Origin: a virus
Lineage: Duplodnaviria > Heunggongvirae > Uroviricota > Caudoviricetes
Virus record (IMG/VR): IMGVR_UViG_2974540528_000001
Coordinates: 97,169 to 147,443 of that record
Direction: 5' to 3' (one strand)
Length of the DNA stretch: 50,275 nucleotides
Position numbers and translations under genes: made by a program. The notes under the pieces are model-generated. The model was not told where the DNA came from. It was given only the letters and a program-made list of their open reading frames with translations, and ran no database searches. Numbering within the stretch: position 1 is the first letter of the stretch; the number at the start of each line of letters is the position of its first letter. Positions 2,213 to 17,321 of this stretch are shown here, in pieces.

Positions 2213-2220
2213 GGGATAAA

Positions 2221-3071: not shown

Positions 3072-3073
3072 TA

Positions 3074-3594: not shown

Positions 3595-3605
3595 CACACA
3601 ACAAG

Positions 3606-3635: not shown

Positions 3636-3649
3636 ATTATCTAAAACCC

Positions 3650-3678
3650 TTGACCTGAAGTGGCCCACACATTATACT
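3650..3678 (+). promoter_or_regulatory. sigma70 promoter
   Basis: TTGACC-17-TATACT. Confidence 0.8.
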
Positions 3679-3709
3679 CTCCTAAACACAGACAAGAGGA
3701 GATACTCTT

Positions 3710-3847
3710 ATGACAGAACATACAGTGATGTTGATAGCCTTCGGGCTTTGGTTTGCCTTCATGATTTCAGCTTCTCTCGGCTTATTCTACTGGGCCTGCT
3801 TTGGTAAGATTGAGAAGAATAAACAAAACTTTGAGTGGTGGAAATAA
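3710..3847 (+). CDS. Small membrane protein (45 aa)
   Basis: GAGGAG RBS; one TM segment. Confidence 0.65.
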   Translation: MTEHTVMLIAFGLWFAFMISASLGLFYWACFGKIEKNKQNFEWWK

Positions 3848-4020
3848 TGGAGCTTATAATTCTTTGGATATTGGTGATCGTTGCCATAGTGGTGGTGGTC
3901 TTTGCTGTCTGCTCCTTATTCGGAGACGACGATGATGACAATGCCCCACCAACGGGCCAGACCACCCAGGCAATGATGAGTACCACACAACAATGTCTGA
4001 TCATCACAACCATTCTTTAA
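3847..4020 (+). CDS. Small membrane protein with acidic tail
   Basis: TM segment then DDDDD; TAATG overlap. Confidence 0.65.
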   Translation: MELIILWILVIVAIVVVVFAVCSLFGDDDDDNAPPTGQTTQAMMSTTQQCLIITTIL

Positions 4021-4030
4021 GGGACCCAAC

Positions 4031-4315
4031 ATGGCTTTCAATAAGGTAGTAAAAGCGCCAGCAAAACTGGCACACATCAGGAATTGCCCACGCAAGAAAT
4101 CTGAGAGGGAAAAGAGGCGAATGGAGTGGCTGCTGGAAAGCATTAAGAACACCACAACATCATTATTAGCGCCATTCGGACAAGAGTACAAAATGTATTT
4201 GTATACCCGCCTGAGAGAAGACATCGCAGAGCTGAATAGTCTCACCTGTTACAACGGTGTGGAAGCACAGGCGGCAATTACCGAAATCAAATTTTACCAC
4301 GACAGGATGCTATGA
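4031..4315 (+). CDS. Hypothetical protein
   Basis: AAGGGA RBS. Confidence 0.75.
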   Translation: MAFNKVVKAPAKLAHIRNCPRKKSEREKRRMEWLLESIKNTTTSLLAPFGQEYKMYLYTRLREDIAELNSLTCYNGVEAQAAITEIKFYHDRML

Positions 4316-4578
4316 TGAAACATTTCGAAGGACTGTTTTGGATCACCATTTACCACACAGCTACACCTCTTCTGAAGAGCCGCCTCAAAGAGGCTGGGTG
4401 TATTGTCTACCAGGGGGATGAGACATGCTACAACTGGGTATATGCTCTGTTCGATAGCGAGTCTAAAATGAATAGAATTAACAGTAGATACTACAGGTCA
4501 GTCCAGATGATTCTCGGAACATACAAAGGCTATCAAAGCTGGCTGGACGACGGTCACTACACACAAATTGAACTATAG
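4312..4578 (+). CDS. Hypothetical protein
   Basis: ATGA coupling. Confidence 0.75.
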   Translation: MMKHFEGLFWITIYHTATPLLKSRLKEAGCIVYQGDETCYNWVYALFDSESKMNRINSRYYRSVQMILGTYKGYQSWLDDGHYTQIEL

Positions 4579-4589
4579 GAGCACACAAC

Positions 4590-4967
4590 ATGAGTGATTA
4601 CAAAATCCTTTACAAACGCCGAGCAGGCAGGGAATCATGGGAAGTCTTCTACAAAGAAAGGCCGCTGGAGTATTGTACCCCAAGGGTTTTAACGGACTGC
4701 GGGTATCCTGATTCCAACCCATATGACAGCCTTGATAATGCCAGGAAAGTCATAAAATCTCACAAACGCTTTATGGAGATGTATATCGAGGAGAACAGAG
4801 AAAACACAACAAAGTGGCTGAGTGAGGACGGTGTCCCGATCCCACAACAAGTTATGGAAGTCCTTCCTGATGATGGCCCACCAAATATCATGACCAAGGT
4901 CTGTGTTGCCATCCCAGTTTTGGCGGTAATTATAGCCACTGGAATTCTGTATTATATCATGGATTGA
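4590..4967 (+). CDS. Hypothetical protein with C-terminal TM anchor
   Basis: AGGAG RBS; hydrophobic C-terminus. Confidence 0.75.
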   Translation: MSDYKILYKRRAGRESWEVFYKERPLEYCTPRVLTDCGYPDSNPYDSLDNARKVIKSHKRFMEMYIEENRENTTKWLSEDGVPIPQQVMEVLPDDGPPNIMTKVCVAIPVLAVIIATGILYYIMD

Positions 4968-5023
4968 TAAAATGGGTTGACGTAAACTGTCAGTCCTGTG
5001 TTAAGGTTTCTTCGAAATGATGC

Positions 5024-5052
5024 TTGCATCACCCGGAGGGCCATGCTATAGT
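5024..5052 (+). promoter_or_regulatory. sigma70 promoter with extended -10 and no downstream gene
   Basis: TTGCAT-17-TATAGT with TGn. Confidence 0.65.
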
Positions 5053-5390
5053 CATTATACGCCACATCTCCTGAAGCGGGAGGATACAATCATCACCCCT
5101 GCGTGAAAGGTTGCACATCCAATTAACACACAACCTTAAGGGACTCCCCGATATGTCGATAAAACACCATTTCATAAACACATTGCCGTAACGTGTCGAT
5201 GCCATAAACATATCGCGTAAACAGGCCCCTGTTTTCTCCACATAACCACCCCCGCCCCGTGGGGAAATCAAAACATGCCCCTGCCGAAAATATCACTTGC
5301 CGAAAAATATCGTGTTCGCACTGTCTGAGGTGTTTTGGAGCATTCTCACCATCTGAGGTGCTAGACGGACAGCTCCGGGCGTCAATTATT

Positions 5391-5405
5391 TTTACGGATC
5401 TTTAC
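5391..5405 (-). promoter_or_regulatory. CpxR-consensus box
   Basis: GTAAA-GATCC-GTAAA on minus strand, 5 nt upstream of TTGACG. Confidence 0.55.
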
Positions 5406-5762
5406 AAAATATCATGGGCAAGGTCGATCCGGTCCCCGGTCCCTCGGGGCCTCTTCAGGCATGATAGTTACTTGCCGAAACTAATAATTATCAAATGTTA
5501 CAGATAGCAAGCATATGGTTTACCAGCTTAGAGCACGATTTGTCATTGACAAGCTTATATTTATATGAATTACACCATTTAACATAAAACACGTTATACG
5601 CACTGGCTAACAACACATAGCAAGCTAATAATGCCTCAATGTTACCAGTGTGACACATAGGCCAGCCTCTTCAGGTCATTACATGGTGTGACTGTTACTG
5701 TGGTGATAGTTTCATGTGTGATTATTCATGTTTCAGGGTTGTTTTGTGAATGAGATGACGAA

Positions 5763-5925
5763 TGAGAATCATTATTATTTCGATTTCGAATTCAATTTCG
5801 AAATGAGAATCATTCCGCAAATATAAATATTTTGTAAATTTATAAATAAAAGCTTGACAAGGAGAGAGAATCGTGTTTAACACACAGCTCTACTTTGAGC
5901 ATTTCCCCAATGATAATCATTCCCA
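5763..5925. promoter_or_regulatory. Three Fur-box-like sites
   Basis: TGAGAATCATTATTA 5763, TGAGAATCATTCCGC 5804, TGATAATCATTCCCA 5911 versus the 7-1-7 consensus TGATAAT-N-ATTATCA. Confidence 0.6.
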
Positions 5926-6008
5926 TCAACCCCGTTACGGACCGGATACCCGGCAATGCTAAAGCATTGAAATAGTTACAATAAGTAACTATTTTCTTTA
6001 TTGCTACG

Positions 6009-6021
6009 CAAGGGATTGATA
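6009..6021 (-). promoter_or_regulatory. IHF-consensus site
   Basis: TATCAATCCCTTG matches WATCAANNNNTTR, with an upstream AT tract. Confidence 0.4.
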
Positions 6022-6184
6022 GATATTTTCGATAATAAAAACACTTGACAGTTTACACTTTTTCCATGCTCAAAATCAGGCCTTTCCATAGGCCATAGGC
6101 CCACATTAGCAAGTGATTTATTGCTATTTGTCAACCATTAAATTTCATTTAATCACATAATAATAACGGGGTGTTACCATCACC

Positions 6185-6390
6185 AGCGACACAATAACAC
6201 GAGGGCGATCAACGATAGTTGATCGGTGTTATCGTGGCGATGTGATAAAGTTCCATTGCTAATCATTACAGATGTAATGATAATACACTGTAATAATTTC
6301 GTCCTTGATCGTAGCGTCTACGAGCCACGATAACGCGAACGAGAATGCGATTTGTTCGCATTTGAGTTACCCTCGTGTTATTGTGTCGCT
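6185..6390. other. Multi-branched structured element (ncRNA or DNA cruciform)
   Basis: Perfect 21-bp outer inverted repeat enclosing an 11-bp stem and four hairpins. Confidence 0.8.
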
Positions 6391-6489
6391 CGCTACGCTC
6401 GCGCCACTCCCCACGATTACGCGAACGATTTTTATTTGACAAGATTTTATTTTTATGCTCAATAAAACCAGTTCACACAATAGGTTAGA

Positions 6490-6521
6490 TGATAAAAGTT
6501 ATCATTTGAGAGTGATTCCCA
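6490..6521. promoter_or_regulatory. Two adjacent Fur-box-like sites
   Basis: TGATAAAAGTTATCA and TGAGAGTGATTCCCA. Confidence 0.5.
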
Positions 6522-6633
6522 CACTATGCATACATAATGCTTAAAAATGCATGTTTTATTCAGTTAATAACATGCGTTATTAATTGTTGGGGTTGTTAGG
6601 TAGGGCCATACCCTTTTAAGCGCAATATGCGCC

Positions 6634-6697
6634 ATTCTGAGAGGCTTTATCTCTTACCCTGGCTAGTGGGTTACCGCCTGGAGATCTCGATTATGCA
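6634..6697. repeat. GAGATCTC module, copy A (partial)
   Basis: ATTCT..AG..ACCCTGG..AGTG..GAGATCTCG aligns with copies at 8447 and 11805. Confidence 0.65.
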
Positions 6698-6750
6698 GGT
6701 TTTAGTCACCTATCACTTTTTGATTATTGATTGATAAAACCTAACATATA

Positions 6751-6778
6751 AAAACACAAAAGCCGGGAGTTGCCCGGC
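6751..6778 (-). terminator. Rho-independent terminator ending the minus-strand early block
   Basis: GCCGGG/CCCGGC stem followed by a T-rich tract on the minus strand. Confidence 0.75.
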
Positions 6779-6803
6779 ATTATTTTTGGGGAGTAGTGGA
6801 GCC

Positions 6804-7067
6804 TTACAGCGCGATAGCCAGCAGGCCAGCGATCAAGAAAGGGAGATCATAACGGTCTAAACGATTAAAGCGATTAAGTTTAATCAGAGTGTAAAACGTC
6901 AATTGTAAAACGTCGATCATGGTGTTAAACCCTTGCGCCATTGTTTCCGTCGTTACCAGGCAAGCCAGCCAGTTAAAACACGTATTAGACACTAAAGCAA
7001 TAAGGCAAGCCAGCAGGGTAGCGCGTAAAAGGCTTGTTTTGCTTACAGTGTAAATCATGTTTGTCAT
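6804..7067 (-). CDS. Membrane protein
   Basis: GAG RBS; hydrophobic segments. Confidence 0.7.
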   Translation of the reverse strand: MTNMIYTVSKTSLLRATLLACLIALVSNTCFNWLACLVTTETMAQGFNTMIDVLQLTFYTLIKLNRFNRLDRYDLPFLIAGLLAIAL

Positions 7068-7098
7068 TTGGTGTTACTCGTTTAATGAGGGAGGTAAA

Positions 7099-7135
7099 AG
7101 AATAACACACGAAAAAGGGCGCTGCAATAGCGCCC
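7099..7135 (-). promoter_or_regulatory. Overlapping terminator and sigma70 promoter
   Basis: GGGCGCT/AGCGCCC stem plus T5; TTGCAG-17-TATTCT with the -35 in the hairpin loop. Confidence 0.7.
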
Positions 7136-7141
7136 CGATGT

Positions 7142-7312
7142 TTAAGCTAATTCAATCTCAAATAAAACGCCCATATAGCGATCATCACCTGAAAGCGTAG
7201 TAACAATTTTCATACATTCTTCAAAGGTCCAAGCCATTGTAGACCCCTGGCGAACATAAGACACATAACCGGTTTTTGAAGTGCTTTTGATATTGTAGCG
7301 GATATTTGACAT
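7142..7312 (-). CDS. Hypothetical protein (56 aa)
   Basis: AGGTAAA RBS ahead of ATG 7312. Confidence 0.7.
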   Translation of the reverse strand: MSNIRYNIKSTSKTGYVSYVRQGSTMAWTFEECMKIVTTLSGDDRYMGVLFEIELA

Positions 7313-7362
7313 TTTATTTACCTTCGGTTTTGCGGGTTGGTTATCTTCCCGCTCTGAAATAA

Positions 7363-7402
7363 ATAATAGTCGAAAACATCTGGCGAGGCAAGCGTTTTGC
7401 CT
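7363..7402 (-). promoter_or_regulatory. sigma70 promoter with inverted repeat over the -35
   Basis: TTGCCT-17-TATTAT; AGGCAA-5-TTGCCT. Confidence 0.65.
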
Positions 7403-7415
7403 TTTCTTTACAACC

Positions 7416-7628
7416 TCATTCACTGATTAGTTTAAATTCAGCCTCAGGGTGATAAAGGTCGGCCATATAGCGCTTTTTGTAATAGAAAGATACTTCCACA
7501 ATGTGGGGCGCTTCGATTTCTATTTGTGTGATAGTCACTAAACCAGGTTTAAAGCCTGGTGCAATGTCCGGTAACTCAATAACCATTCCGCCTTTTAATT
7601 CCTTCGCTTTTACAGTTCTCATGATCAT
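7416..7628 (-). CDS. Hypothetical protein
   Basis: Coupled to the upstream gene; AAAGGT RBS. Confidence 0.7.
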   Translation of the reverse strand: MIMRTVKAKELKGGMVIELPDIAPGFKPGLVTITQIEIEAPHIVEVSFYYKKRYMADLYHPEAEFKLISE

Positions 7629-7858
7629 TAACCTTTTTTGCGTTTAATTACTTTTATTACTTTAAGGCCCTTTTGTTCTAAAAACTCCGGGCGGCGCAAT
7701 TGTGCGGCGCTGCTACGGCTTTTCACCTTGTTAGACAACACACCATAATAGCGCCCGTCCTCATACTGCCCGATGAAATAAAAATCATTTACGCCGTATT
7801 CCTCATCTCCTGCCTTCTGGATGATTTCGGCTAATTTGTCAACACTAATATTAATCAT
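7628..7858 (-). CDS. Hypothetical protein
   Basis: AGGTAAA RBS and upstream hairpin. Confidence 0.75.
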   Translation of the reverse strand: MINISVDKLAEIIQKAGDEEYGVNDFYFIGQYEDGRYYGVLSNKVKSRSSAAQLRRPEFLEQKGLKVIKVIKRKKG

Positions 7859-7906
7859 AATTGCTTTACCTCAAAGGATAGCGGGGCGGCTAGCGCCCCG
7901 GATTGG

Positions 7907-8236
7907 TTATTTGTTAAGCTCTTTATATTCAGCAATCCAGCGGGTAAAAATCTTATGTTGCTTTTCTGCCGCCGCTTTTGTTCTATGTGAGATAGCGGTG
8001 ATATACCAACAATCCGCAAGGCACCAACCGGAAGAATGAAAAATCCAAGGATAATTTGAATCCGCCGCTTTAAGTTTCACGATCTTCTCTTCTGGTTCAC
8101 TATGTGTGAAGGCTTCGATCTCGTTTGCCGTGTACTGGCGATCTTGCCGCTTGATACGGTTTCCGAAATGATCAAAAGTGTAATTGTGTGATTCCAGGTG
8201 ATTATCCAGCATCTTAAAGAATTCTGATTTAGTCAT
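7907..8236 (-). CDS. Hypothetical protein
   Basis: AGGTAAA RBS; own promoter. Confidence 0.8.
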   Translation of the reverse strand: MTKSEFFKMLDNHLESHNYTFDHFGNRIKRQDRQYTANEIEAFTHSEPEEKIVKLKAADSNYPWIFHSSGWCLADCWYITAISHRTKAAAEKQHKIFTRWIAEYKELNK

Positions 8237-8285
8237 TTTCGTTTACCTCGTTAAGTTGTTTTCGTTTGTTTGCCCTACGAGATAA

Positions 8286-8335
8286 ATAATAATATAAGCG
8301 GGGATCGCTGTCAATAGCTCTTTACGTATCTTTAC
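8286..8335 (-). promoter_or_regulatory. sigma70 promoter with CpxR-consensus box
   Basis: TTGACA-17-TATTAT (8314-8286); GTAAA-GATAC-GTAAA at 8321-8335, 6 nt upstream of the -35. Confidence 0.75.
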
Positions 8336-8446
8336 AAAAGGCCTGTTTATTCACTTTTTGCATCTTTATGCAGCGCTATGCAATTGATTTCATGGTGAAA
8401 TTACTTTTTAGCCGTTTTTACGTGTCAAGCTATTTTTATATAGCCT

Positions 8447-8572
8447 TAAAACGTCCTGAATCGCGTTCTAAGCGGTTTTTCGTCCAGGCCGTACCCTAGC
8501 CCGTTTTCGCGGAGATCTCGCCATATTCACTATTTTGCATAAGATTTTAGGCGTTGTTGAGAGTAATTCTCA
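8447..8572. repeat. GAGATCTC module, copy B, with Fur-like box
   Basis: TAAAACG..TTCTAAGCG..ACCCT..GAGATCTCGC..ATTCAC..TTTTGCATAA; TGAGAGTAATTCTCA at 8558-8572. Confidence 0.75.
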
Positions 8573-8636
8573 TTACCAGAATAGCGGGCACCTCCGGTGA
8601 CTTTCCTCCGGTGTCCATCGTTGCCGCTTCAAAAAC

Positions 8637-8666
8637 AGAATAACAAAAACCAGGACCGAAAACAAG
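8637..8666 (-). promoter_or_regulatory. Possible sigma70 promoter
   Basis: TTGTTT-18-TATTCT with TG extension. Confidence 0.45.
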
Positions 8667-8692
8667 CCCTGGAATTGTAAAGATTTTTCCTA

Positions 8693-9160
8693 TCATGCTG
8701 GGCCGGATCTCTTCGCCTTTGCAATGTCGGAATATAATTTTCTAAAGTATGCCGGGCCTCGCTCGTTTACCCTCACATATTCATCACGCGCCGCCACCTG
8801 GAGATCGTCGGGTAATAATCCATGATAACCACTGTTAACAATAGCGATCCGTTTTTTGTTGCAATCATAGTAGACACATGATCCATCGGCTAGATAAATT
8901 GTGCAGTTTTGCCGGATGTAGGGTATCAAATAAGCCTCGCCCTGGTGCCGGATTTTGTAAAGCGCCATTTGTCCATTGTAGATCCGGCGGACGTGATAAG
9001 GGTCATTAATTGCCCGGTGAATGTTTTCCTTCCAGGCCTGGCGAGCGTTGCCAACATTACGGATCAGTGCTTCCACCTCGGGGATCACAACGTTAGCGCG
9101 GGCGGCGGCTTTTGCCTGGTCTGATAATTCATCGTAATAAAACATTCGTACACTAATCAT
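8693..9160 (-). CDS. Hypothetical protein
   Basis: AGGA RBS; N-terminal YDELSDQAKAAA segment. Confidence 0.8.
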   Translation of the reverse strand: MISVRMFYYDELSDQAKAAARANVVIPEVEALIRNVGNARQAWKENIHRAINDPYHVRRIYNGQMALYKIRHQGEAYLIPYIRQNCTIYLADGSCVYYDCNKKRIAIVNSGYHGLLPDDLQVAARDEYVRVNERGPAYFRKLYSDIAKAKRSGPA

Positions 9161-9191
9161 TTTTGATTCCTATAAACGGAAAATGTGGGAG

Positions 9192-9280
9192 GTCGGCGGG
9201 GCGAAGGTGCTGACTTCGAACCCACTCGCCAGACATGAGGACCAGGACACGGGAACCCCGCCAGCGGTATCGATTCCCGT
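9192..9280. other. GC-rich structured intergenic element
   Basis: Stems 9249-55/9274-80, 9195-9201/9256-62 and CGAAG/CTTCG. Confidence 0.5.
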
Positions 9281-9301
9281 TTAAAACGTTGACGTAAATG
9301 A

Positions 9302-9529
9302 TCATGCGCCGTAAAGGCCATCACCATCAAAATCATCCTGAAAAAATGACAGATATTCGAAAAACTCGAATTCCATCGCTACCGTATGTTTTACCAGATC
9401 GGTGTTTGCATATTCAGCGGGTGATAACCGGATCGGCGCGTCACTATATAGGTCAGTAAGTTCGATGTATTCACCGACTTTTTGAGCGGTCACCGTGTTT
9501 TTCTTGTTGTTAAAAATTACTGTTTTCAT
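9302..9529 (-). CDS. Hypothetical protein
   Basis: Hairpin plus AGGTAAA RBS cassette. Confidence 0.8.
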   Translation of the reverse strand: MKTVIFNNKKNTVTAQKVGEYIELTDLYSDAPIRLSPAEYANTDLVKHTVAMEFEFFEYLSFFQDDFDGDGLYGA

Positions 9530-9548
9530 GGTTTACCTTCCAGGTTAT

Positions 9549-9567
9549 GCCGGGGACGTTCCCCGGC
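9549..9567. repeat. GCCGGGGA/TCCCCGGC stem-loop
   Basis: Perfect 8-bp stem; family member. Confidence 0.85.
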
Positions 9568-9582
9568 TTGTCGGCGAGTGTA

Positions 9583-9843
9583 TTAGAGCGCTTTTTCGAT
9601 ATCACTTAAAATCTTTTTGGCCAGGTCATAGCCTACATTCAGATCCCGCGCGATATCCTCGGCTAACAGTTTACGGCCTACGTTGCCGAAACTTAGCATT
9701 CTTTTAACTTCCGGTAAACACTTACCCCAATAATTATAACAGGAGTTACCGATATATTTTGAATAAAACGCGTTATCGTTGCGAACTCCACCCAAAACAG
9801 CGACATTAACAGAGATAACGTGTTTAAAATTGTGCTTTTCCAT
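9583..9843 (-). CDS. Hypothetical protein
   Basis: Promoter, hairpin and AGGTAAA cassette. Confidence 0.8.
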   Translation of the reverse strand: MEKHNFKHVISVNVAVLGGVRNDNAFYSKYIGNSCYNYWGKCLPEVKRMLSFGNVGRKLLAEDIARDLNVGYDLAKKILSDIEKAL

Positions 9844-9864
9844 TTTGGTTTACCTTTTCGGCTT

Positions 9865-9923
9865 GCCGGGGAGGTATTCCCCGGCCTCAAAAAGATATTA
9901 ACCGATCCGCGACTGGCTTGCAA
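9865..9923 (-). promoter_or_regulatory. sigma70 promoter plus 5' GCCGGGGA stem-loop
   Basis: TTGCAA-17-TAATAT (9923-9895); stem at 9865-9885. Confidence 0.8.
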
Positions 9924-9940
9924 GCGTTTTTATTTAATAA

Positions 9941-10173
9941 TTACGCCCACGTTTTAGCATAAGAAAACAGGTCAGAGACATAGCCGCGATAGCCGCCGGG
10001 GCGTTTTGCCTTTGCGTTGCGATACCATGCGACAATTACAGATCCGCCGCTTGTCACGCCACCAAAAAACCTTTCATCTCCGCTTCGCCAGCTTCCACCC
10101 ATTGCCCACGCTGTAAAGTTTTAGGATCTACGTTGTCGGCCCAAATGTTAACAGTTTTTTGATATTTAGCCAT
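9941..10173 (-). pseudogene. 77-aa protein split by a -1 frameshift at T_TTT_TTG
   Basis: Frame 0 stops at 10054-10056; the -1 frame continues GVTSGGSVIVAWY to TAA 9941. Confidence 0.6.
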
Positions 10174-10189
10174 CTTTTATTTACCCCAA

Positions 10190-10513
10190 TTAGTTAGCAC
10201 GGAAAACATCGTTAACAATAGCCGTTGTAAACATCCAGACTAGATCCGGGGTAGTTATAGGCAGGCTGTCAGCCTGTTTTATTGTTACTCCGCTTCTTTC
10301 AAGCGTGTAGGCGATAAAATGACGGTTTTCAAGTTTCCCGCTATGGGATTGAATGGATTTTTCAGTGCGGATAAGGACAGTTAAACGGTCCGTTTGTTCG
10401 CTGTCATTCTCATGGCAAAATACTAACATGGTTTTTTCACCCTGGCGATTAAAGTCACAATTGACATTATCGTTAACATTTTCCAGAAAGAAAAATTTGT
10501 TTGCCTTTTCCAT
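10190..10513 (-). CDS. Hypothetical protein
   Basis: AGGTAAA RBS; own promoter. Confidence 0.8.
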   Translation of the reverse strand: MEKANKFFFLENVNDNVNCDFNRQGEKTMLVFCHENDSEQTDRLTVLIRTEKSIQSHSGKLENRHFIAYTLERSGVTIKQADSLPITTPDLVWMFTTAIVNDVFRAN

Positions 10514-10559
10514 ACTATTTTACCTTTTTCGCAGCGGGCCAATATTGCCCGGTCCAAGT

Positions 10560-10588
10560 AATATAACCTAACCGGGCCAGGGGATCAA
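10560..10588 (-). promoter_or_regulatory. sigma70 promoter with GATC in the -35
   Basis: TTGATC-17-TATATT. Confidence 0.65.
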
Positions 10589-10788
10589 TAATTATTTTCG
10601 CTTTCCGGCATCGGTTCGACTTCCGGCGATGGTATGCAGGCCGGATTAATCCAGCGCCCCTGGCGCTGATAGTCAACGGCGACGATCTCGCAAGTCAATT
10701 GATCATCATAGCTTTCTACTACATAATCATCACACTGTTTTAAAGCCAGCGCACTATAAAAGCACATACCCGCGAATACTTCAAACAT
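10585..10788 (-). CDS. Small Cys-containing, possibly exported protein (paralog of next gene)
   Basis: MF..C..S....QCD..V......C pattern. Confidence 0.75.
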   Translation of the reverse strand: MFEVFAGMCFYSALALKQCDDYVVESYDDQLTCEIVAVDYQRQGRWINPACIPSPEVEPMPESENNY

Positions 10789-10798
10789 GATCGTTACC

Positions 10799-11017
10799 TT
10801 ACTTTTTGAGGGTGAGAATAGGGCGCTTATCGCCTTCTTTAACGCCGGGGTCTAACTCATCGCAGATCCCGATCTGCTCGCCTTTGCCCAACGTGTATTC
10901 GTTTTCGTACACGTTGCAAGCCTGTTCCGTGGGGAATGTTTTTTTAACATTCCAATCACATTGTAATGCCATCGAACTAACAGAAATATGACAAGCCAAT
11001 ATAATAAATCCAAACAT
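10799..11017 (-). CDS. Small Cys-containing, possibly exported protein
   Basis: Same Cys spacing as 10585-10788. Confidence 0.7.
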   Translation of the reverse strand: MFGFIILACHISVSSMALQCDWNVKKTFPTEQACNVYENEYTLGKGEQIGICDELDPGVKEGDKRPILTLKK

Positions 11018-11055
11018 GGTAGCCGCCTTAATGGGGCGCAAGGCCCCGCTATTGA

Positions 11056-11340
11056 TTATTTGTTGATCTGGTTTGTCTGATTATAGATCCCATATTGAAC
11101 ACGGGACACGGTAACAGATTGAGGGAGTAAGCAACGAACACGATCCGCGCGGTTGTCATATTTTTTGATATGCGCCGGAGTATTGTTGCGGGTAAACTTC
11201 ACGCGTAAACGTAATTTATTGGGATCGCGATCATCGATTCCGGTTACCACGCCAAAAGCGATTTGACCATAGTTATGATACACCATTTTGCCCAGGAATT
11301 TTGATTCAAGAGCGGCGATTTCAGATTTTACGTTTTGCAT
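11056..11340 (-). CDS. Hypothetical protein
   Basis: AGGTAAA RBS before ATG 11340. Confidence 0.8.
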   Translation of the reverse strand: MQNVKSEIAALESKFLGKMVYHNYGQIAFGVVTGIDDRDPNKLRLRVKFTRNNTPAHIKKYDNRADRVRCLLPQSVTVSRVQYGIYNQTNQINK

Positions 11341-11385
11341 GTTGTTTACCTTTTGGTTATTTGTTTCACTTGTCAATGTGTAGGA

Positions 11386-11415
11386 AGTATAACCCCACAC
11401 ATTAACCAGTGTCAA
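11386..11415 (-). promoter_or_regulatory. sigma70 promoter
   Basis: TTGACA-18-TATACT. Confidence 0.75.
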
Positions 11416-11418
11416 CAA

Positions 11419-11595
11419 TTAAAGACAAAATTTTTCTAGTTCTGACTCACGAAAAAGGAAATTATCTAGGCCCTTTGCCACATTTGAACACTCAAAAATC
11501 CATTTACCATTTGAATCTTTCCAAGCGCGATTAATCCCAACATAACAACAAAATTCAGAACTATAGGCCGTTTTATACATGTTTTGCTTTTCCAT
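11419..11595 (-). CDS. Hypothetical protein (58 aa)
   Basis: AGGTAAA RBS. Confidence 0.75.
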   Translation of the reverse strand: MEKQNMYKTAYSSEFCCYVGINRAWKDSNGKWIFECSNVAKGLDNFLFRESELEKFCL

Positions 11596-11641
11596 AGTGT
11601 TTACCTTTTTCAGTGTGGCGGTGAATTCCGCCACTGATTAA

Positions 11642-11704
11642 AGGATAGCATAACGCCGCCAGGATGCAACAAATATTTTTAAGAATTGTTGAGAACTGTT
11701 CTCA
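11642..11704 (-). promoter_or_regulatory. sigma70 promoter with upstream Fur-like palindrome
   Basis: TTGCAT-16-TATCCT; TGAGAAC-T-GTTCTCA at 11690-11704. Confidence 0.6.
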
Positions 11705-11804
11705 TATGCAGTGATGTGCATAGAAAATCGCTGTTATGCAATTAGTTTCAACCGGTAACTAAATTTGCGACGTTTTGAGCGGGGCGCGGTTATCGGATAC
11801 CATC

Positions 11805-11900
11805 TAAAACGCCCTCAAATCGATTCTAAGCGCTTCAATCTGTAACCCTGGTAAGTGCATTGCTACGCTGAGATCTCGCTAAATTCACTTTTTTGCATAA
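11805..11900. repeat. GAGATCTC module, copy C
   Basis: Aligns with 8447-8542 over ~95 bp. Confidence 0.75.
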
Positions 11901-11923
11901 AAAAACCGGGGATAATTCCCCGG
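11899..11923 (-). terminator. Rho-independent terminator built on the CCGGGGA stem
   Basis: CCGGGGA/TCCCCGG followed by T7 on the minus strand. Confidence 0.75.
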
Positions 11924-11928
11924 ACTGG

Positions 11929-12144
11929 TTATTCACCTGCTACGGCGTATCGCTGCAAATTACGCTTACGATCGGCGATGCGTTTATTTAGCTTCGGATC
12001 ATACTGGTCCGGCGACCATTGAACCGCGATCCGTTCCGGCTTATGCCGTTTATTGTTACGCTCGCGCCGCTCGTTAGTCTCACCAAAAGCAAGGCGATCG
12101 CGCTGGCTTGTCATCTTCTCAAAGTTGCGGCTTTTTGCTGTCAT
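11929..12144 (-). CDS. Basic hypothetical protein
   Basis: 71-aa Arg/Lys-rich ORF; GGGGA RBS. Confidence 0.7.
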   Translation of the reverse strand: MTAKSRNFEKMTSQRDRLAFGETNERRERNNKRHKPERIAVQWSPDQYDPKLNKRIADRKRNLQRYAVAGE

Positions 12145-12481
12145 ATCTTGATCCCCTGTGGTTGTATGTTTCCGCTCGCCATTCCGCGATCTGTTTTTTG
12201 CGATATTCGATCAGCTCTTCGATGTAGTCGAAGGATCCCTCTTTATGTACCAGGACCACGCCTCCCCGGTGTTTAATCTCACAAATCAGGCCGCTACCCT
12301 CCAAATCATTTAACGGCCCGGATCTCCTGGTGTGGTACTCCTCCCCCTGGAAGCGATATTCTATATAGTGGAACATTGTTTTAACCCTGTACCAGTAGTA
12401 AAACCATTTTATAACACGCCAGATCCTGACGTGAAGTTTTGCATAATAACAAAATATGAGTAGAATCAACAATTCTTTCAT
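12119..12481 (-). CDS. Hypothetical protein (alternative start 12376)
   Basis: Continuous ORF with a second RBS-like GGGTTAAAAC before ATG 12376. Confidence 0.65.
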   Translation of the reverse strand: MKELLILLIFCYYAKLHVRIWRVIKWFYYWYRVKTMFHYIEYRFQGEEYHTRRSGPLNDLEGSGLICEIKHRGGVVLVHKEGSFDYIEELIEYRKKQIAEWRAETYNHRGSRYDSKKPQL

Positions 12482-12482
12482 A

Positions 12483-12866
12483 TTACGCGGCGCTGTTTTT
12501 AAATGGCTTATCATGGCCGCCAAAATGTAGGCCGATATAGTGACCGACATCAAAATAATCTGTCATTATATCACTATTGTTATAATTATCTGTATTTAAT
12601 GCCTCGATGATTTCGCCAACAGCCTTTTTGAATTCAGGAGTTTTGCAATATCTTTCATAGTGGTATGTGTTTAAATCCTTGTGCCCGTTTTCCCGTTCCC
12701 AATCTGTTAAATCTAAAACATCATTCAAATTGAACGGCGCGGATCGAACGGTACAACGGATCGTAGAATAGTGAATTACTTTAAACGTAACTTTCCAACC
12801 CTTCGGCAATACATCTTTAACCGCTTCAACAATTTTAGCTTTCTTCTCTTTATTCATGTAGGCCAT
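12483..12866 (-). CDS. LPD29-like (large polyvalent protein-associated) domain protein
   Basis: C-terminal NSDIMTDYFDVGHY motif. Confidence 0.6.
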   Translation of the reverse strand: MAYMNKEKKAKIVEAVKDVLPKGWKVTFKVIHYSTIRCTVRSAPFNLNDVLDLTDWERENGHKDLNTYHYERYCKTPEFKKAVGEIIEALNTDNYNNSDIMTDYFDVGHYIGLHFGGHDKPFKNSAA

Positions 12867-12887
12867 TTTGTTTACCTTTTAGGTTAT

Positions 12888-12942
12888 GCCGGGGACAATT
12901 CCCCGGCTTTAATCAGTATAGCGGTTTAAAGAATCTTTGCAA
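12888..12942 (-). promoter_or_regulatory. sigma70 promoter plus 5' GCCGGGGA stem-loop
   Basis: TTGCAA-16-TATACT; stem at 12888-12907. Confidence 0.7.
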
Positions 12943-13438
12943 CGTCTTTATAAGACCATGCAAAAAGAGAATTTTGTTTACCTGGTGCAACATCCGCCAG
13001 GCGTCCAGCAAATCGGGCGCGGTTATGTGGGAACTCAAAGACAACCACACGACCGGATACCATTTCCACGCGATCGCCGTTTTTCAGGATCTTGATCCGG
13101 TCAATCAATGCTTTCTGCTCTTTTTTGTATTTGGCATGTTTACGGCAAGCGGCACGCCAATTAACGGAAAATTCATCTTTTTGCATGGATCGCTTAAGGA
13201 ATTTTTCAGGACAGTTATAATAACACGGGCCGCAGGTTTCATCCATATCTTTATAAAAGACCATACCATCTTTACGAGAAAGAATTGTTACACGAATGTA
13301 AAGACTTTCATCCCTCGCCCTTGCAAGTTGATAAACTTCATTGCCTACAACAGAAGTTTCGATCACGCGGTTATCAGTCAGATAATTTTCAACAAATTTT
13401 TTGTTATTAAGATTAGAATAAATGCCAGTCCAGCCCAT
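12926..13438 (-). CDS. DUF6927-like protein
   Basis: N-terminal MGW; YKDMDETCGP..CP..WR..C motif. Confidence 0.55.
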   Translation of the reverse strand: MGWTGIYSNLNNKKFVENYLTDNRVIETSVVGNEVYQLARARDESLYIRVTILSRKDGMVFYKDMDETCGPCYYNCPEKFLKRSMQKDEFSVNWRAACRKHAKYKKEQKALIDRIKILKNGDRVEMVSGRVVVFEFPHNRARFAGRLADVAPGKQNSLFAWSYKDVAKIL

Positions 13439-13481
13439 GATATTTTACCTCGTTTAGTGTTTAGTTTGTTGGTGCCTGGTA

Positions 13482-13511
13482 ATTATAGGCCCTTTCCGGG
13501 CCTGGTGTCAA
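13482..13511 (-). promoter_or_regulatory. Consensus sigma70 promoter with palindromic spacer
   Basis: TTGACA-18-TATAAT; AGGCCC/GGGCCT inverted repeat. Confidence 0.85.
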
Positions 13512-13514
13512 ATA

Positions 13515-13784
13515 TTATTTTCTTAAATCTTTCCAGCCAGCGGCGCATATATCGCCAGCTAGATAATATTTATTATCAAGATCTGAGATCTTAAAGGTGA
13601 ATTCATGCCCAAGATAGTTAAATTTTTTAACAAGGACTGAGATCAGGCAATCAGGGCCGTGATGGAAGTGATCCACGTTGTAGGCCTCTTTTGATATGCT
13701 GATACACTCGCCATACTGGGCGACCTGGTGAAAACACTTGTTAAAATCGCGCATAAGCTTTAAAGACCTGAGATTCATTGCCAT
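13515..13784 (-). CDS. Hypothetical protein
   Basis: GGGTAAAA RBS; hairpin and promoter. Confidence 0.8.
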   Translation of the reverse strand: MAMNLRSLKLMRDFNKCFHQVAQYGECISISKEAYNVDHFHHGPDCLISVLVKKFNYLGHEFTFKISDLDNKYYLAGDICAAGWKDLRK

Positions 13785-13804
13785 GATATTTTACCCTTGC
13801 TAGG

Positions 13805-13861
13805 GCCGGGGAGAATTCCCCGGCTGATTTGTATTATCTGTTATCGTGTGGCGGTTGTCAA
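13805..13861 (-). promoter_or_regulatory. sigma70 promoter plus 5' GCCGGGGA stem-loop
   Basis: TTGACA-17-GATAAT; stem at 13805-13824. Confidence 0.8.
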
Positions 13862-14643
13862 ATGATACGTTCGAATTTATCGAATCTTTTTGCGGATCTG
13901 CCGTGAACGTCGATCACGACGTTGGCACGTTTACCATCGCACAGGCCGCAATCTAAACAGCTGATGTTGTGAGTTGTATTAACGCAAGTGATCTCACCTT
14001 CCAAGCGGCGCATGTTGGGAGTTTTCACGCGGAAAGTTTTATAACCCTTACGCCATGCTGTGATCGCTTGTTTCTCCGTATCGGCTGAGATCTGGCAAAT
14101 GGTAGCGATACGATGATCAAAATTCTTATGGTGGATCTGGTGAGTGTACCCCGTGTTACCTTGCGTATGGTTGATCATGTTTTGCCATACCTCAAAAGGA
14201 ACCGCCGCCGGATCACCGTAGGAACCTAAACGAATATGACGACCCGCAAAATGTACCAGATCGCGAGAATCAAGATCTTTATAGTTGCCTTTTTTGTAAG
14301 ACTTCCAGACTGACAGCGGGGCCTGGTGTAACGTCACATAACAAGCGCCGTTTAAGCTGGTACGATGGGGACACATACCGCAAACAGATGAATCAAGTTT
14401 TTTAGCGCTCGCTTCCAGTGGGCTAACATCTTCCCGCATGATCCAGGTCTGGATCATATCGCCGGTTTTATCGTTAGCGGTTGACATTGTAGCAATGACC
14501 ACGATCGGGGCCTTATCCAGAACTGACGGGCCTTTATATAATACATAACCCTTTTTTGCTGTGGATTTTTTACCCGGTACACTATGCACGATCTCGGATT
14601 CTGAGTTGACAACCAGACCATTATTAAGTTTAAACGTAGACAT
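13858..14643 (-). CDS. Cys-rich protein, possible Fe-S or radical-SAM-like enzyme
   Basis: CGMCPH, CYV, RLGSYGDP and C-terminal CLDCGLC. Confidence 0.5.
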   Translation of the reverse strand: MSTFKLNNGLVVNSESEIVHSVPGKKSTAKKGYVLYKGPSVLDKAPIVVIATMSTANDKTGDMIQTWIMREDVSPLEASAKKLDSSVCGMCPHRTSLNGACYVTLHQAPLSVWKSYKKGNYKDLDSRDLVHFAGRHIRLGSYGDPAAVPFEVWQNMINHTQGNTGYTHQIHHKNFDHRIATICQISADTEKQAITAWRKGYKTFRVKTPNMRRLEGEITCVNTTHNISCLDCGLCDGKRANVVIDVHGRSAKRFDKFERII

Positions 14644-14688
14644 TGCTTTTTACCTCGATTTATCGCGGCCATTGCCGCCTGAGAAAAC

Positions 14689-14717
14689 ACTTTATCAAAG
14701 GCGCTAACTGAAAGCAA
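14689..14717 (-). promoter_or_regulatory. sigma70 promoter
   Basis: TTGCTT-17-TAAAGT. Confidence 0.6.
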
Positions 14718-14736
14718 GCGCCCAGGATAAAATATT

Positions 14737-14904
14737 TTATTTGGCCAGGGATAAGGTTTTGCCGTGGTTGATCCCAGGGATAACCCATTGCCCGGCGCCA
14801 TCTTTAACAGGTTGACGTAAACGCGCCGCCGTGGTTACCTTGCTGTTAACATTACGGGCAAAAGCGCGGGCCTGGTCACGGGTAGTAAAAGAAATGTTTT
14901 TCAT
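14737..14904 (-). CDS. 55-aa protein resembling the rIIB N-terminal repeat
   Basis: GAGGA RBS; FTTRDQARAFAR...W. Confidence 0.7.
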   Translation of the reverse strand: MKNISFTTRDQARAFARNVNSKVTTAARLRQPVKDGAGQWVIPGINHGKTLSLAK

Positions 14905-14946
14905 GTTGTATCCTCGTTTGAGTGGTTTTTTGTTTCGCTTGTCAGG

Positions 14947-14983
14947 TCCGGGGATTATAACCCCGGACACTAGCCAGTGTCAA
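14947..14983 (-). promoter_or_regulatory. Consensus sigma70 promoter with the -10 inside a hairpin loop
   Basis: TTGACA-18-TATAAT; TCCGGGG-ATTATAA-CCCCGGA. Confidence 0.85.
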
Positions 14984-14991
14984 TTAAATGT

Positions 14992-15279
14992 TTATTCTTC
15001 GCCAGGTTCACCATAGGCGCTAGAAATAGGCGCGCCACAATGGGCGCATGGAGTATCTGACCCTTCCCAATAGATATCCACTCCAGCAGGCATCCAGGCC
15101 CGGTCGTTTTCGTCTCGCAATCCCTCCAAAATTTGGCGGAAATTTTCACGGGCACAATTTGAACAAATGATCTCACTATCCCGCATGATCAAAATTTTCG
15201 GATACCCACCGAACTCATACGGGTGGCGGATATAATTTTTTACAGTGCCGATCAATTGTTTGTTAGCGGAAATTTTCAT
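14992..15279 (-). CDS. Zn-finger hypothetical protein
   Basis: CSNC...CAHC; AGGTAAA RBS. Confidence 0.8.
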   Translation of the reverse strand: MKISANKQLIGTVKNYIRHPYEFGGYPKILIMRDSEIICSNCARENFRQILEGLRDENDRAWMPAGVDIYWEGSDTPCAHCGAPISSAYGEPGEE

Positions 15280-15326
15280 TCTGTTTTACCTTTTAAGTTG
15301 GGCGGCGAGGCGACCTGATGAGATGA

Positions 15327-15428
15327 ATAGTAAGCGCTTTACTAATTGCCGTCAATCCCCTGGATGAAAATAAATTAAAAATATTTTTGTTCGTGTGGGC
15401 TTGCGCCCCGGCGTGGTTAGTGTACTAT
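15327..15428. promoter_or_regulatory. Divergent sigma70 promoter pair sharing an AT-rich UP tract
   Basis: Minus: TTGACG-17-TACTAT (15355-15327); plus: TTGCGC-16-TACTAT (15401-15428). Confidence 0.75.
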
Positions 15429-15459
15429 ATAAGGACGCCCACAAATAAAGGTAAACAAA

Positions 15460-15645
15460 ATGGAAAACACAAAAGTGATAACGAGTGAAACAATGGTTAC
15501 CCTTTCCACCTGGGAGACGGAAAGCGCAGCGCCCCAGGTTAGGATCGTGCCTTTACCCTTCGCGTTGAAAATGTATAATGCAGGATTTACCAGGGTGAGA
15601 ATTGTTGCGGAAAATGGAGAAGTGATCGCGGACTCCTGGGAGTAA
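15460..15645 (+). CDS. Hypothetical protein
   Basis: AAGGTAAAC RBS; own promoter. Confidence 0.8.
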   Translation: MENTKVITSETMVTLSTWETESAAPQVRIVPLPFALKMYNAGFTRVRIVAENGEVIADSWE

Positions 15646-15659
15646 AAAATATTTTATCG

Positions 15660-15694
15660 CGGGGCTTGCAAACGGCCCCGGCCTGGATTATATT
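15660..15694 (+). promoter_or_regulatory. sigma70 promoter with the -35 in a hairpin loop
   Basis: TTGCAA-17-TATATT; CGGGGC/GCCCCG. Confidence 0.75.
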
Positions 15695-15700
15695 TATCAG

Positions 15701-15795
15701 ACAGAAGAGGAAACGCCACCCCACGGCGTAAAGGCGGGGCTAACGTACCAGGCGCGGGGCCAGGTCGGAAGGTGGATCGCCGGTAGCTCGCCTAA
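15701..15795 (+). ncRNA. Candidate small structured RNA
   Basis: Follows a promoter, has no ORF; stems 15713-17/15725-29 and 15732-42/15784-93. Confidence 0.45.
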
Positions 15796-15804
15796 AATCT
15801 ATTT

Positions 15805-15860
15805 GTAAAGAATTGTAAAGACGCTTGCAACCTGGGGCCGTGTATCCTATATTATACACA
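15805..15860 (+). promoter_or_regulatory. sigma70 promoter with CpxR-consensus box and DnaA box
   Basis: GTAAA-GAATT-GTAAA at 15805-19; TTGCAA-17-TATATT; TTATACACA at 15852-60. Confidence 0.7.
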
Positions 15861-15912
15861 TAGCGGGAACATTGAAACCGGAGTACAAAACACCGGGGGT
15901 GCCTGTCATTCA

Positions 15913-15961
15913 GCAAATGAGAATGATTATCATTCAAATAACTAAATAAGAATGCTTCTCA
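15913..15961. promoter_or_regulatory. Fur-box-like sites
   Basis: TGAGAAT-G-ATTATCA at 15918-32; TAAGAAT-G-CTTCTCA at 15947-61. Confidence 0.65.
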
Positions 15962-16026
15962 TTCAACAAAAAAAAAATTAAATATTGACTTCTGATTTTT
16001 CATGTGAGATACTGAGCGATACCCCT

Positions 16027-16240
16027 AAAAAATTTTTTCGCGTAAGAAAACAAATACGATCTGGAAATTGAGATCTCGATCGAGAACCGGGCCGAAAAAT
16101 TTTTTCTAGAGAAAAAACAATTACGATCTCGATTTTGAAAAACCGATCGAGAACTCGATTGATATAGAGAAAAATTTTTTGATAGTGAGAGCAAATACGT
16201 TTTTGAAAACGAAAAGTCGATCGAGAACCCAGAGTTTTCT
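16027..16240. repeat. Three degenerate ~70-bp tandem repeats with A-tracts and GATC
   Basis: CGATCGAGAAC at 16077, 16144 and 16218; AAAAATTTTTT three times. Confidence 0.75.
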
Positions 16241-16505
16241 ACCTGAAAATTTGAGATATCTTTTTCGCCTATTTGAGATAAATGTCCAATCTTGATGCCA
16301 AGATACCTATAGCAATCATACACTTGTGCATCATTTTTCGACATAGCTTCCACAAAGGTTTGAGATAATCTACTCCCAAAACTCTTTATTTAAAAATTTG
16401 CAGGGAAGATGAAATCCGTTTCAAAAACGATTTTGAAAACCATTTCGAATTTTAAAATATCTTTGGGATATTAAATATCGTACAAATATCCCACAGTTTT
16501 GAATC

Positions 16506-17321
16506 TTATCTTGGATTGAAAATATCCTTCCATTTAATAATATCATAGGTTGTGCCTGTAGAAATTTCATACATTTGAACCTCATCTGGAGTCGGATTAC
16601 AAATGTCAATGAAAAATGTGCTCAATACAGAAATCAGGAACCGTTCTGTCTTTCCTGGGACTGTGTAAACAATACGCATATCACCGGGAATAGGAGAAAG
16701 GACCAAGGAAGTAGGGCCATTCATAAGTGTAACGGTATTATCAGCAATCTTGATACGACCATCGACACCATACACCAAATCATGAGCAGAAGAATAATGT
16801 GCAAGCACCTCTACTACCGGGTTACCGACAAGGTTGACGAGGTAATCAAGATACAGGTCTCGCCATCCTCGATTCTGCATCATGTACCGTATATGGGATC
16901 CTCCATCAAACATCTCACCCAGTTGCTCTGCGATCCAGGCAACACCATTTGCAATGTCTTCTCTGTTCCAAGTATTGTCGATATCTAAGATATCCTTACT
17001 GAACTTGTTCATGCGCCGCATGGCATTGAGTACATACTCACCTCTTTCAACAAAGGCACGTTCAGTGTCTTTTGCATAATCGAGAAGCCCTTCAACCTCT
17101 GAACCTGTAGCGTATTGCTTAAGGTCATCAAGCACACTTTCCACGCTGGCCTTGGCCTGATTGAAAGTCCTCTCATCAGTCTCGTCAGTAGAGAATTCTA
17201 CACCACCAAGGGCGTATGTAGCATCATCATAGAGCTTTTTGAGATCATGACGCATATCTGGGAAGTCATAACCAACTTTGTTATGAGGGATAAGTTCAAG
17301 AGTGTTTAAAATAGTGGTCAT
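16506..17321 (-). CDS. Hypothetical protein
   Basis: Long ORF; AGGA RBS. Confidence 0.85.
   Translation of the reverse strand: MTTILNTLELIPHNKVGYDFPDMRHDLKKLYDDATYALGGVEFSTDETDERTFNQAKASVESVLDDLKQYATGSEVEGLLDYAKDTERAFVERGEYVLNAMRRMNKFSKDILDIDNTWNREDIANGVAWIAEQLGEMFDGGSHIRYMMQNRGWRDLYLDYLVNLVGNPVVEVLAHYSSAHDLVYGVDGRIKIADNTVTLMNGPTSLVLSPIPGDMRIVYTVPGKTERFLISVLSTFFIDICNPTPDEVQMYEISTGTTYDIIKWKDIFNPR

Follow-up and report, generated by a model that had tools for sequence, protein, structure and literature searches.

Fur boxes are textbook elements of bacterial iron genes. Why, then, should sequences of this kind be arrayed in the non-coding DNA near one end of a virulent phage genome? The question is raised by the terminal 50,275 bases of a 147,443-bp virus record (IMGVR_UViG_2974540528_000001, positions 97,169 to 147,443), a stretch that is referred to here as the window and numbered from its first base. 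An initial annotation of the window had pointed out nine Fur-box-like sites between 5763 and 15947. These sites match Fur operators in sequence, they are not randomly placed, and they are conserved together with their spacing and their position relative to promoter-like elements. We infer from sequence that host Fur binds to them, what sign its effect would have, and what the transcripts under its control would do. If Fur does bind, such phages would sense host iron via a ready-made host protein at the time of DNA arrival, before any phage protein is made. This would bear on the control of early transcription, on origin firing or on DNA entry. It would also concern phage therapy: Klebsiella is iron-starved at infection sites, and phage performance there might differ from that in rich broth. 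Finally, it touches an old puzzle, since the same boxes are found in the injection stop signal of phage T5.

Fur-box-like sites at the borders of the early island

The source is a virulent rV5-like Klebsiella phage. Its nearest public relatives, at approximately 94% identity, are the Mydovirus (Vequintavirinae, rV5-like) phages KB57, KNP2, KpS8 and Mydo, with Klebsiella or Proteus hosts. Genes of the window run rightward from 1 to 5500, and leftward from approximately 23000 down to 6804. A direct terminal repeat of 514 bp (5364-5877) was assigned by homology to Klebsiella phage DP: both ends of the DP record carry a 514-bp stretch annotated as repeat_region, and both copies align to this part of the window. 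The record of phage KP12 starts with the equivalent of window position 5364, and the physical genome end is placed by homology at this base. The first 10.5 kb or so inside the mapped end are termed the early island here. The island genes are small, without Pfam domains, and belong to function-unknown families in PHROGs. A promoter scan called 21 near-consensus sigma-70 promoters genome-wide, five of which are leftward promoters inside the island.

All nine elements of the initial annotation (5763, 5804, 5911, 6490, 6507, 8558, 11690, 15918 and 15947) were found at their positions. They were graded by the number of mismatches to AATGAKAATNATTMTCATT, a degenerate 19-mer that accommodates the phage variant as well as the Fur consensus, and by a position weight matrix (PWM) made exclusively from 11 published Gram-negative iron boxes (PMC10665472). 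It is a small, crude matrix; leave-one-out scores of the published boxes on their own PWM span -2.2 to 27.8. Six out of nine sites (5763, 5911, 6490, 8558, 15918 and 15947) are strong or moderate, with 0-3 mismatches to AATGAKAATNATTMTCATT and PWM scores of 9.5-17.9.

The outer array (boxes A to E at 5763, 5804, 5911, 6490 and 6507) lies at the inner edge of the terminal repeat. Box A (5758-5779; AATGAGAATCATTATTATT, 1 mismatch, PWM 15.6) is strong, and box B (5799-5820; PWM 3.5) is weak, with a perfect half site AATGAGAATCATT followed by CCGC and a right half that is not a Fur half. Both are located inside the repeat, approximately 100 and 60 bp from its inner edge, respectively, while box C (5906-5927; 2 mismatches, PWM 13.4) starts the series beyond the edge, at a distance of 32 bp. 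Box C is strong and includes the perfect core AATGATAATCATT at 5909-5921, as had been noticed. Box D (6488-6506; GATGATAAAAGTTATCATT, 3 mismatches, PWM 11.3) is moderate; a site is present here as claimed, but its geometry is 6-3-6 rather than 7-1-7. Box E (6505-6523; TGAGAGTGATTCCCA, PWM 1.1) is weak and counts only under the phage-derived consensus. Two internal intergenic nodes carry one box each. Box F (8556-8574; GTTGAGAGTAATTCTCATT, 3 mismatches, PWM 10.8), in the node at 8240-8690, is moderate, and box G (11688-11706) is a perfect 7-1-7 palindrome, TGAGAAC-T-GTTCTCA, that is weak as a Fur site (PWM 6.1). The inner array, 10.55 kb or about 7% of the genome from the mapped end, consists of boxes H and I, which are 29 bp apart. 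Box H (15913-15937; AATGAGAATGATTATCATT, 0 mismatches) is the best of the genome and is composed of two overlapping 19-mers with PWM scores of 17.9 and 17.4. The 6-bp stagger that had been described for it is real: the sites at 15913 and 15919 have 4 and 5 mismatches to the 19-bp Fur consensus, and site 15913 matches the 19-bp iron box GATAATGATAATCATTATC at 15 out of 19 positions. Box I (15945-15963; AATAAGAATGCTTCTCATT) has 2 mismatches and a PWM score of 9.5.

The observed counts were compared with those expected from 100 order-2 Markov simulations of the 147-kb genome. With up to 2 mismatches allowed, the 15-mer Fur consensus is found 8 times (1.13 expected) and the 17-mer Fur consensus 4 times (0.06 expected). 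For AATGAKAATNATTMTCATT there are 7 matches with up to 3 mismatches and 4 with up to 2, compared to 0.32 and 0.01 expected, and the reversed-pattern control gave 0. Six of these seven matches are in non-coding nodes of the island; the seventh, at genome position 22706 with 3 mismatches, is inside a coding open reading frame (ORF) in an Asn/Asp-rich stretch. The top three 19-mers of the entire 147-kb genome on the published-box PWM (17.9, 17.4 and 15.6) are all island boxes. A chance origin of the boxes is thus excluded. It had been stated that nothing of this quality exists outside the island; this holds apart from genome 22706, a site with a PWM score of 14.1 at genome 61512, and a few weaker 15-mers. 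An equal density elsewhere was not seen in the whole-genome PWM scan, and the array stands as described.

Host Fur as the candidate reader

The window sequence at 5758-5776 is identical to the published iron box GATAATGAGAATCATTATT at 16 out of 19 positions, and because of this match TGAGAAT, the dominant half site of the phage boxes, is a documented Fur half site. The same PWM was applied to the ent cluster of E. coli as a positive control, and the best matches there fall in the fepB-entC, fepD-entS and fepA-fes intergenic regions with scores of 9.6-19.9; the phage boxes (9.5-17.9) are in the range of these intergenic sites. The fepB-entC site (PWM 19.1) and box I have the 13-mer AATGCTTCTCATT in common. 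In the reverse test, the phage-derived consensus AATGAGAATNATTCTCATT with up to 3 mismatches found 16 sites in E. coli K-12, compared to 2 sites for the reversed control. The best three are located 26 bp upstream of gpmA, approximately 40 bp upstream of yoeA (a TonB-dependent receptor pseudogene in the K-12 annotation) and on the ryhB promoter, and two further matches are upstream of fecA and fecI; the annotation was checked for these five of the 16 sites. We take gpmA, yoeA, ryhB, fecA and fecI to be Fur-controlled, as is established knowledge. The independent PWM, the match to GATAATGAGAATCATTATT and the K-12 search lend good support, at the level of sequence, to the original identification of the elements as Fur boxes.

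Phage T5 (NC_005859) provides a second line of evidence. All of its 14 matches are in the two terminal repeats, and there is none in the 101-kb unique region. Five of them, at 9552-9715, fall within the stretch annotated as injection stop signal (9140-10149), adjacent to the major nick. They flank the shear site at approximately 9618 bp that is quoted in a preprint on the stop, in which the host factor is called unsolved, DnaA is proposed, and Fur or iron is not mentioned (10.1101/866236). The 18-mer of box B at 5801-5818 is exactly that of T5 9586-9603, inside the injection stop signal, and a 15-nt stretch of box D is identical to T5 5879-5893. A tblastn comparison of 128 island ORFs with T5 1-13000 gave nothing below E = 0.02, and no homologue of A1 or A2. 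Because T5 carries the same boxes in its terminal repeats without a protein resembling the island ORFs, a shared host reader is suggested. DnaA boxes, the elements of the T5 model, are not enriched in our phage (4 observed, 5.8 expected), and this candidate was rejected here. A phage-encoded Fur was also rejected as the box reader, no Fur homologue (PF01475) being found in the phage. Among 20 island or neighbouring ORFs scanned, no Pfam DNA-binding domain was detected; the PHROGs matches were to unknown-function families and to one fragment labelled as DNA ligase. On the strength of these sequence comparisons host Fur is quite likely the reader of the boxes. A literature search on Fur boxes in lytic phage genomes yielded no report of such arrays and did yield Fur boxes on cargo operons of temperate phages; a search with the box sequences themselves returned lists of bacterial iron boxes only and no phage report.

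Conservation and promoter context

The stretch 15888-15970, with boxes 15918 and 15947, is present at 75-85% identity in more than 300 phage records, among them Vequintavirus (rV5), Phapecoctavirus, Certrevirus, Henunavirus, an Aeromonas phage and a Vibrio phage. When ten other whole phage genomes from seven genera were searched with the 19-mer, 3-13 matches were found in each genome, compared to 0-1 for the control. In all ten, including the Aeromonas and Vibrio phages, the matches form two clusters 7-12 kb apart, and these clusters bracket the early block where this was examined (Seunavirus, and the source phage via DP). The two inner boxes are 29 bp apart in several phages and 28 bp apart in the Aeromonas phage. 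The same search gave 2 (equal to control), 0 and 0 matches in T4, T7 and Felix O1, respectively, and no clusters.

Few columns of the non-coding alignments are as well conserved as those of the boxes. In Seunavirus phages the outer array is kept box by box along with a TTGACA element. Box A is conserved in Seunavirus, with T or G at half-site position 4, and box B in PVP-SE1, GAP31, 4MG and FENT2. Box C is kept as ATGATAAnnATT in four out of five aligned phages, GAP31 having ATGCGAA. Box F is found in both Mydo and DP (one flanking base differs in Mydo), and GAP31 has a 19-mer one base off at record position 30363. Box G is identical in Mydo and reads TGAGAAT-T-GTTCTCA in DP. The inner node was aligned in ten sequences, the window plus nine other phages; box H is conserved in all ten, and its 4MG version is the perfect Fur palindrome AATGATAATGATTATCATT.

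What do the boxes stand next to? At the outer border there is a rightward promoter-like element, P5854 (5854-5882, + strand), with TTGACA, a 17-nt spacer and a TG-extended poor -10, which straddles the inner edge of the terminal repeat. It was read from the sequence and not called by the consensus promoter scan; its -35 hexamer and a GTGTTTAnCA stretch are invariant in five phages. Relative to P5854, boxes A, B and C are centred at approximately -119, -78 and +29. Boxes D and E are at approximately +26 and +43 of a further TTGACA element at 6436. Within the island, box F is more than 170 bp upstream of the nearest leftward promoters, and box G is centred at approximately -62 of a weak leftward promoter-like site, TTGCAT-16-TATCCT. 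At the inner border the promoter scan called two rightward promoters. P2 (15805-15853, hexamers at 15825-15853, + strand) has TTGCAA-17-TATATT preceded by GTAAA-N5-GTAAA, and it is recognisable in most of the ten aligned sequences. It is followed by a conserved 55-nt stretch, and boxes H and I are centred at approximately +65 and +94 from it. P3 (15985-16013, + strand; TTGACT-17-GATACT with TG upstream) is conserved in PVP-SE1, GAP31 and 4MG and reads into tandem repeats; the two boxes are approximately -66 and -95 from P3, with box I ending 21 bp before its -35. Relative to promoter-like elements, boxes are thus found at approximately +26 to +94 or at -62 to -119. The near-consensus sigma-70 promoters of the scan that drive early protein genes are free of boxes, which bears out the earlier remark that most boxes lie off promoters. 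The 55 nt that separate P2 from box H were considered as a possible folded RNA; this idea was dropped, the consensus energy being -3.7 kcal/mol with almost no covariation.

Two unusual regions adjoin the arrays. Between boxes 5911 and 6490 there is a highly structured element (6160-6420; RNA fold z = -11.1) with a multi-branch fold whose closing helix is a perfect 21 bp (6185-6205/6370-6390); it is kept in seven phages with 8 compensatory pairs. The element has no Rfam match; a non-coding RNA is conceivable, as is a DNA cruciform of nested ATAACAC/GTGTTAT palindromes. Beyond P3, repeat searches found three tandem repeats of approximately 67-74 bp each (16028-16228), with AT-rich DNA extending to approximately 16500. 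Short 12-bp repeats are present in the AT-rich part of 16028-16500 and no convincing gene was seen; this region looks like an iteron-type origin or control region. The GC content of 16001-17000 is 37%, and the only Mydo-annotated ORF there has no ribosome-binding site.

The GTAAA-N5-GTAAA repeat, which we take to be the CpxR consensus, occurs three times in 147 kb (0.53 expected), at 5391-5405 (- strand), 8321-8335 (- strand) and 15805-15819 (+ strand). All three copies are in island nodes, and each closely precedes a -35 hexamer. The repeat is conserved in phiTE, PVP-SE1, GAP31, 4MG and a Phapecoctavirus, and T5 has GTAAAGAAACGTAAA at 5080; the promoters that bear it may be read by a second host regulator. 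In a leftward promoter-like element at 5380-5409 (- strand), GTAAA repeats are combined with TTGACG approximately 20 bp from the mapped genome end. The -10 of this element would fall outside the terminal repeat, and an intact element would exist only at the right-end copy or in concatemers. A 35-nt module, GAGATCTCGC..ATTCACT.TTTTGCATAA, is present at 8508-8542 and 11866-11900 with 89% identity, in the nodes of boxes 8558 and 11690; a related 25-mer is found in the T5 injection stop region, a match that is not significant alone. The 20 nt at 8272-8291, which cover the -10 and the start of the leftward promoter at 8314, are identical to T5 5027-5046 (E = 1e-4). This identity suggests convergent evolution, or exchange of an early-promoter cassette between unrelated phages. 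Elsewhere in the window, GC-rich hairpins of one family (GCCGGGGAnAATTCCCCGGC) lie between early genes at 9549-9569, 11905-11925, 12888-12908 and 13805-13825 and resemble terminators, of which some would work in both directions. The ORF at 20911-22350 (- strand) encodes a protein of 479 aa, in which a putative metallopeptidase domain (DUF2201_N) is combined with a VWA-like domain. No match was obtained in tRNA and Rfam scans of the window.

A possible iron gate, its alternatives and known systems

The explanation that we favour, with a confidence that stops a little short of even, is an iron-dependent gate in cis: Fe-Fur would control non-coding transcription units at both borders of the early block. 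Judged from the sequence features above, the phage probably reads or exploits the iron status of its host. Host Fe2+-Fur dimers would occupy the boxes once the DNA is in the cell, and no phage protein would be needed. The boxes are just downstream or upstream of conserved rightward promoter-like elements with no protein gene behind them, and bound Fur would serve as a roadblock or occluder. With plentiful iron, transcription into the structured element (6160-6420) and the origin-like region (16028-16500) would be limited; release would follow once Fur gives up its metal or is spread over more and more genome copies during replication. The strong sigma-70 promoters that serve the early protein genes would be left untouched. 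Repression is assumed in this scheme, and anti-silencing is a possible alternative.

Several observations weigh against such a gate. The -10 hexamers of P5854 and of the elements at 6045 and 6436 are poor, and it is doubtful whether these are promoters at all. No box is positioned over a -35/-10 core, that is, in the classical geometry of repression. Three of the nine boxes (5804, 6507 and 11690) fail as Fur operators, with PWM scores of 3.5, 1.1 and 6.1. The early status of the island is something that we infer, reasonably, from promoter quality and gene size only. Furthermore, the phage consensus favours TGAGAAT over TGATAAT, with G instead of the T of Fur in about 12 out of 15 half sites, a preference that would also fit the related but distinct specificity of another protein.

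Such a protein, either a phage dimeric DNA-binding protein or a non-Fur host factor, would read ATGAGAAT-N-ATTCTCAT, and the likeness to Fur boxes would be due to an overlap between AT-rich palindromes. The boxes at 11690 and 6507 do fit the phage consensus far better than that of Fur, and any of the small proteins of unknown function in which the island is rich could bind DNA. However, orthologous boxes in other genera vary among G, T and A at the position in question, the published Fur box has G there, and the best box of 4MG is a perfect Fur palindrome. The same boxes occur in Aeromonas and Vibrio phages and in T5, where no protein in common with the island was detected; the scanned ORFs are devoid of DNA-binding domains; and in E. 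coli the phage consensus finds Fur-regulated promoters and no other regulon among the five annotation-checked sites. We therefore consider a different protein unlikely. It could also be argued that the boxes bind nothing and have arisen incidentally, from AT-rich promoter-like DNA or from the shuffling of regulatory cassettes, given that Fur boxes resemble -10 elements, that the nodes are AT-rich, and that identical stretches of 18-20 nt in T5 suggest cassette exchange. The chances of this are very slim: composition-matched simulations gave 0.01-0.3 matches where 4-7 were observed, the AT-rich T4 genome shows no excess, and both the box sequence and its dyad symmetry have been maintained in seven genera.

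If Fur is the reader, it could still act in other ways than as a cis-acting gate. The initial annotation leaned toward a sponge. Acting in trans, about ten high-affinity sites per genome copy would soak up Fur as the genome replicates; iron uptake and RyhB would be derepressed, which could for instance supply phage enzymes that depend on iron. Titration of Fur by boxes in multicopy is seen in the Fur titration assay (FURTA); a cell contains approximately 5,000-10,000 molecules of Fur, and lytic growth brings the phage genome to high copy number. Each genome offers the several strong boxes that a sponge calls for, six strong operators plus the second copy of those in the terminal repeat, and hundreds of genome copies would supply sites in numbers of the same order as that Fur count. 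Yet a sponge needs no fixed position, and the boxes are fixed in place, in clusters 7-12 kb apart, with a 29-bp spacing and defined distances to promoter elements. Titration would come late, after replication, whereas the boxes are in what is probably the first DNA to act, and derepressed TonB-dependent receptors are of no obvious use to a lytic phage. Because conservation is site by site and preserves the spacing, none of which a sponge needs, we prefer a role in cis to a pure sponge, which appears improbable; of the two options raised initially, the sponge is not favoured, and iron-gated control or architecture in cis would fit better. A DNA entry or boundary element is held at about the same low probability as the sponge. 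Fur on the inner array would pause DNA entry, or insulate a block similar to the first-step-transfer DNA of T5, as an analogue of the injection stop. This would agree with the confinement of the T5 matches to the terminal repeats, five of them in the stop signal around the shear site, with the distance of the inner array from the mapped end (about 7%, versus 7.9% for the T5 stop), with the terminal block of small, mostly leftward genes in both phages, and with the short identical non-coding stretches in the T5 first-step region. On the other hand, two-step entry of rV5-like phages was not reported in the literature searched, no T5 A1 or A2 homologue was detected, the terminal repeat is 514 bp rather than approximately 10 kb, and boxes are also found inside the block (8558 and 11690). 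A protein on DNA that is already internal would not obviously be able to halt further entry, and the T5 stop is credited to DnaA boxes (10.1101/866236), which are not enriched here. Slightly more doubtful still is the broader proposal that Fur-box arrays are a shared cis element of a staged entry or boundary mechanism in T5-like and rV5-like phages, with Fur on the array approximately 10 kb from the entering end as the host factor behind the T5 injection stop, and with an early block in our phage that would resemble first-step-transfer DNA and be released according to host iron status.

How does the proposed cis-acting gate compare to known systems? Enterobacterial Fur operators (GATAATGATAATCATTATC, or 7-1-7 TGATAAT-N-ATTATCA; GATAATGAGAATCATTATT, ryhB, fecI, fecA and fepB-entC) are similar to the phage boxes in sequence and PWM range, and they have dyad symmetry, overlapping sites with a 6-bp stagger and multi-box arrays in common with them. 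Unlike these operators, the phage boxes are located in gene-free DNA of a virulent phage and not over the -35/-10 of iron genes; they form two arrays bracketing a probable early-gene block, with single boxes inside. A host Fur box on phage DNA has a precedent in lambdoid coliphages carrying the sitABCD operon, which has a Fur box upstream (PMC6969025). In that case a single box is on an iron/manganese uptake promoter that is a member of the host regulon, whereas the arrays described here belong to a lytic phage and have no iron gene in their vicinity.

The region of the T5 injection stop signal is, like that of the inner array, non-coding and repeat-rich, and it carries the same boxes, including the 18-mer of box B. 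In both phages this region borders, on the inside, a terminal block of small genes (presumably early in ours), approximately 7-8% from a genome end that in our phage is mapped by homology. T5 itself is an unrelated siphovirus whose terminal repeats are 10 kb long and whose two-step DNA transfer, dependent on A1 and A2, is proven; the repeat assigned to our phage is 514 bp long. Sites for host factors in phage control DNA are well known, as in the case of the IHF sites at lambda cos and attP and the DnaA boxes in the T5 stop region. In the same manner, an existing host DNA-binding protein would be used in cis at genome ends or control regions if Fur reads the boxes. The difference is that this factor would be a metal-sensing repressor, so that occupancy of the sites would report iron.

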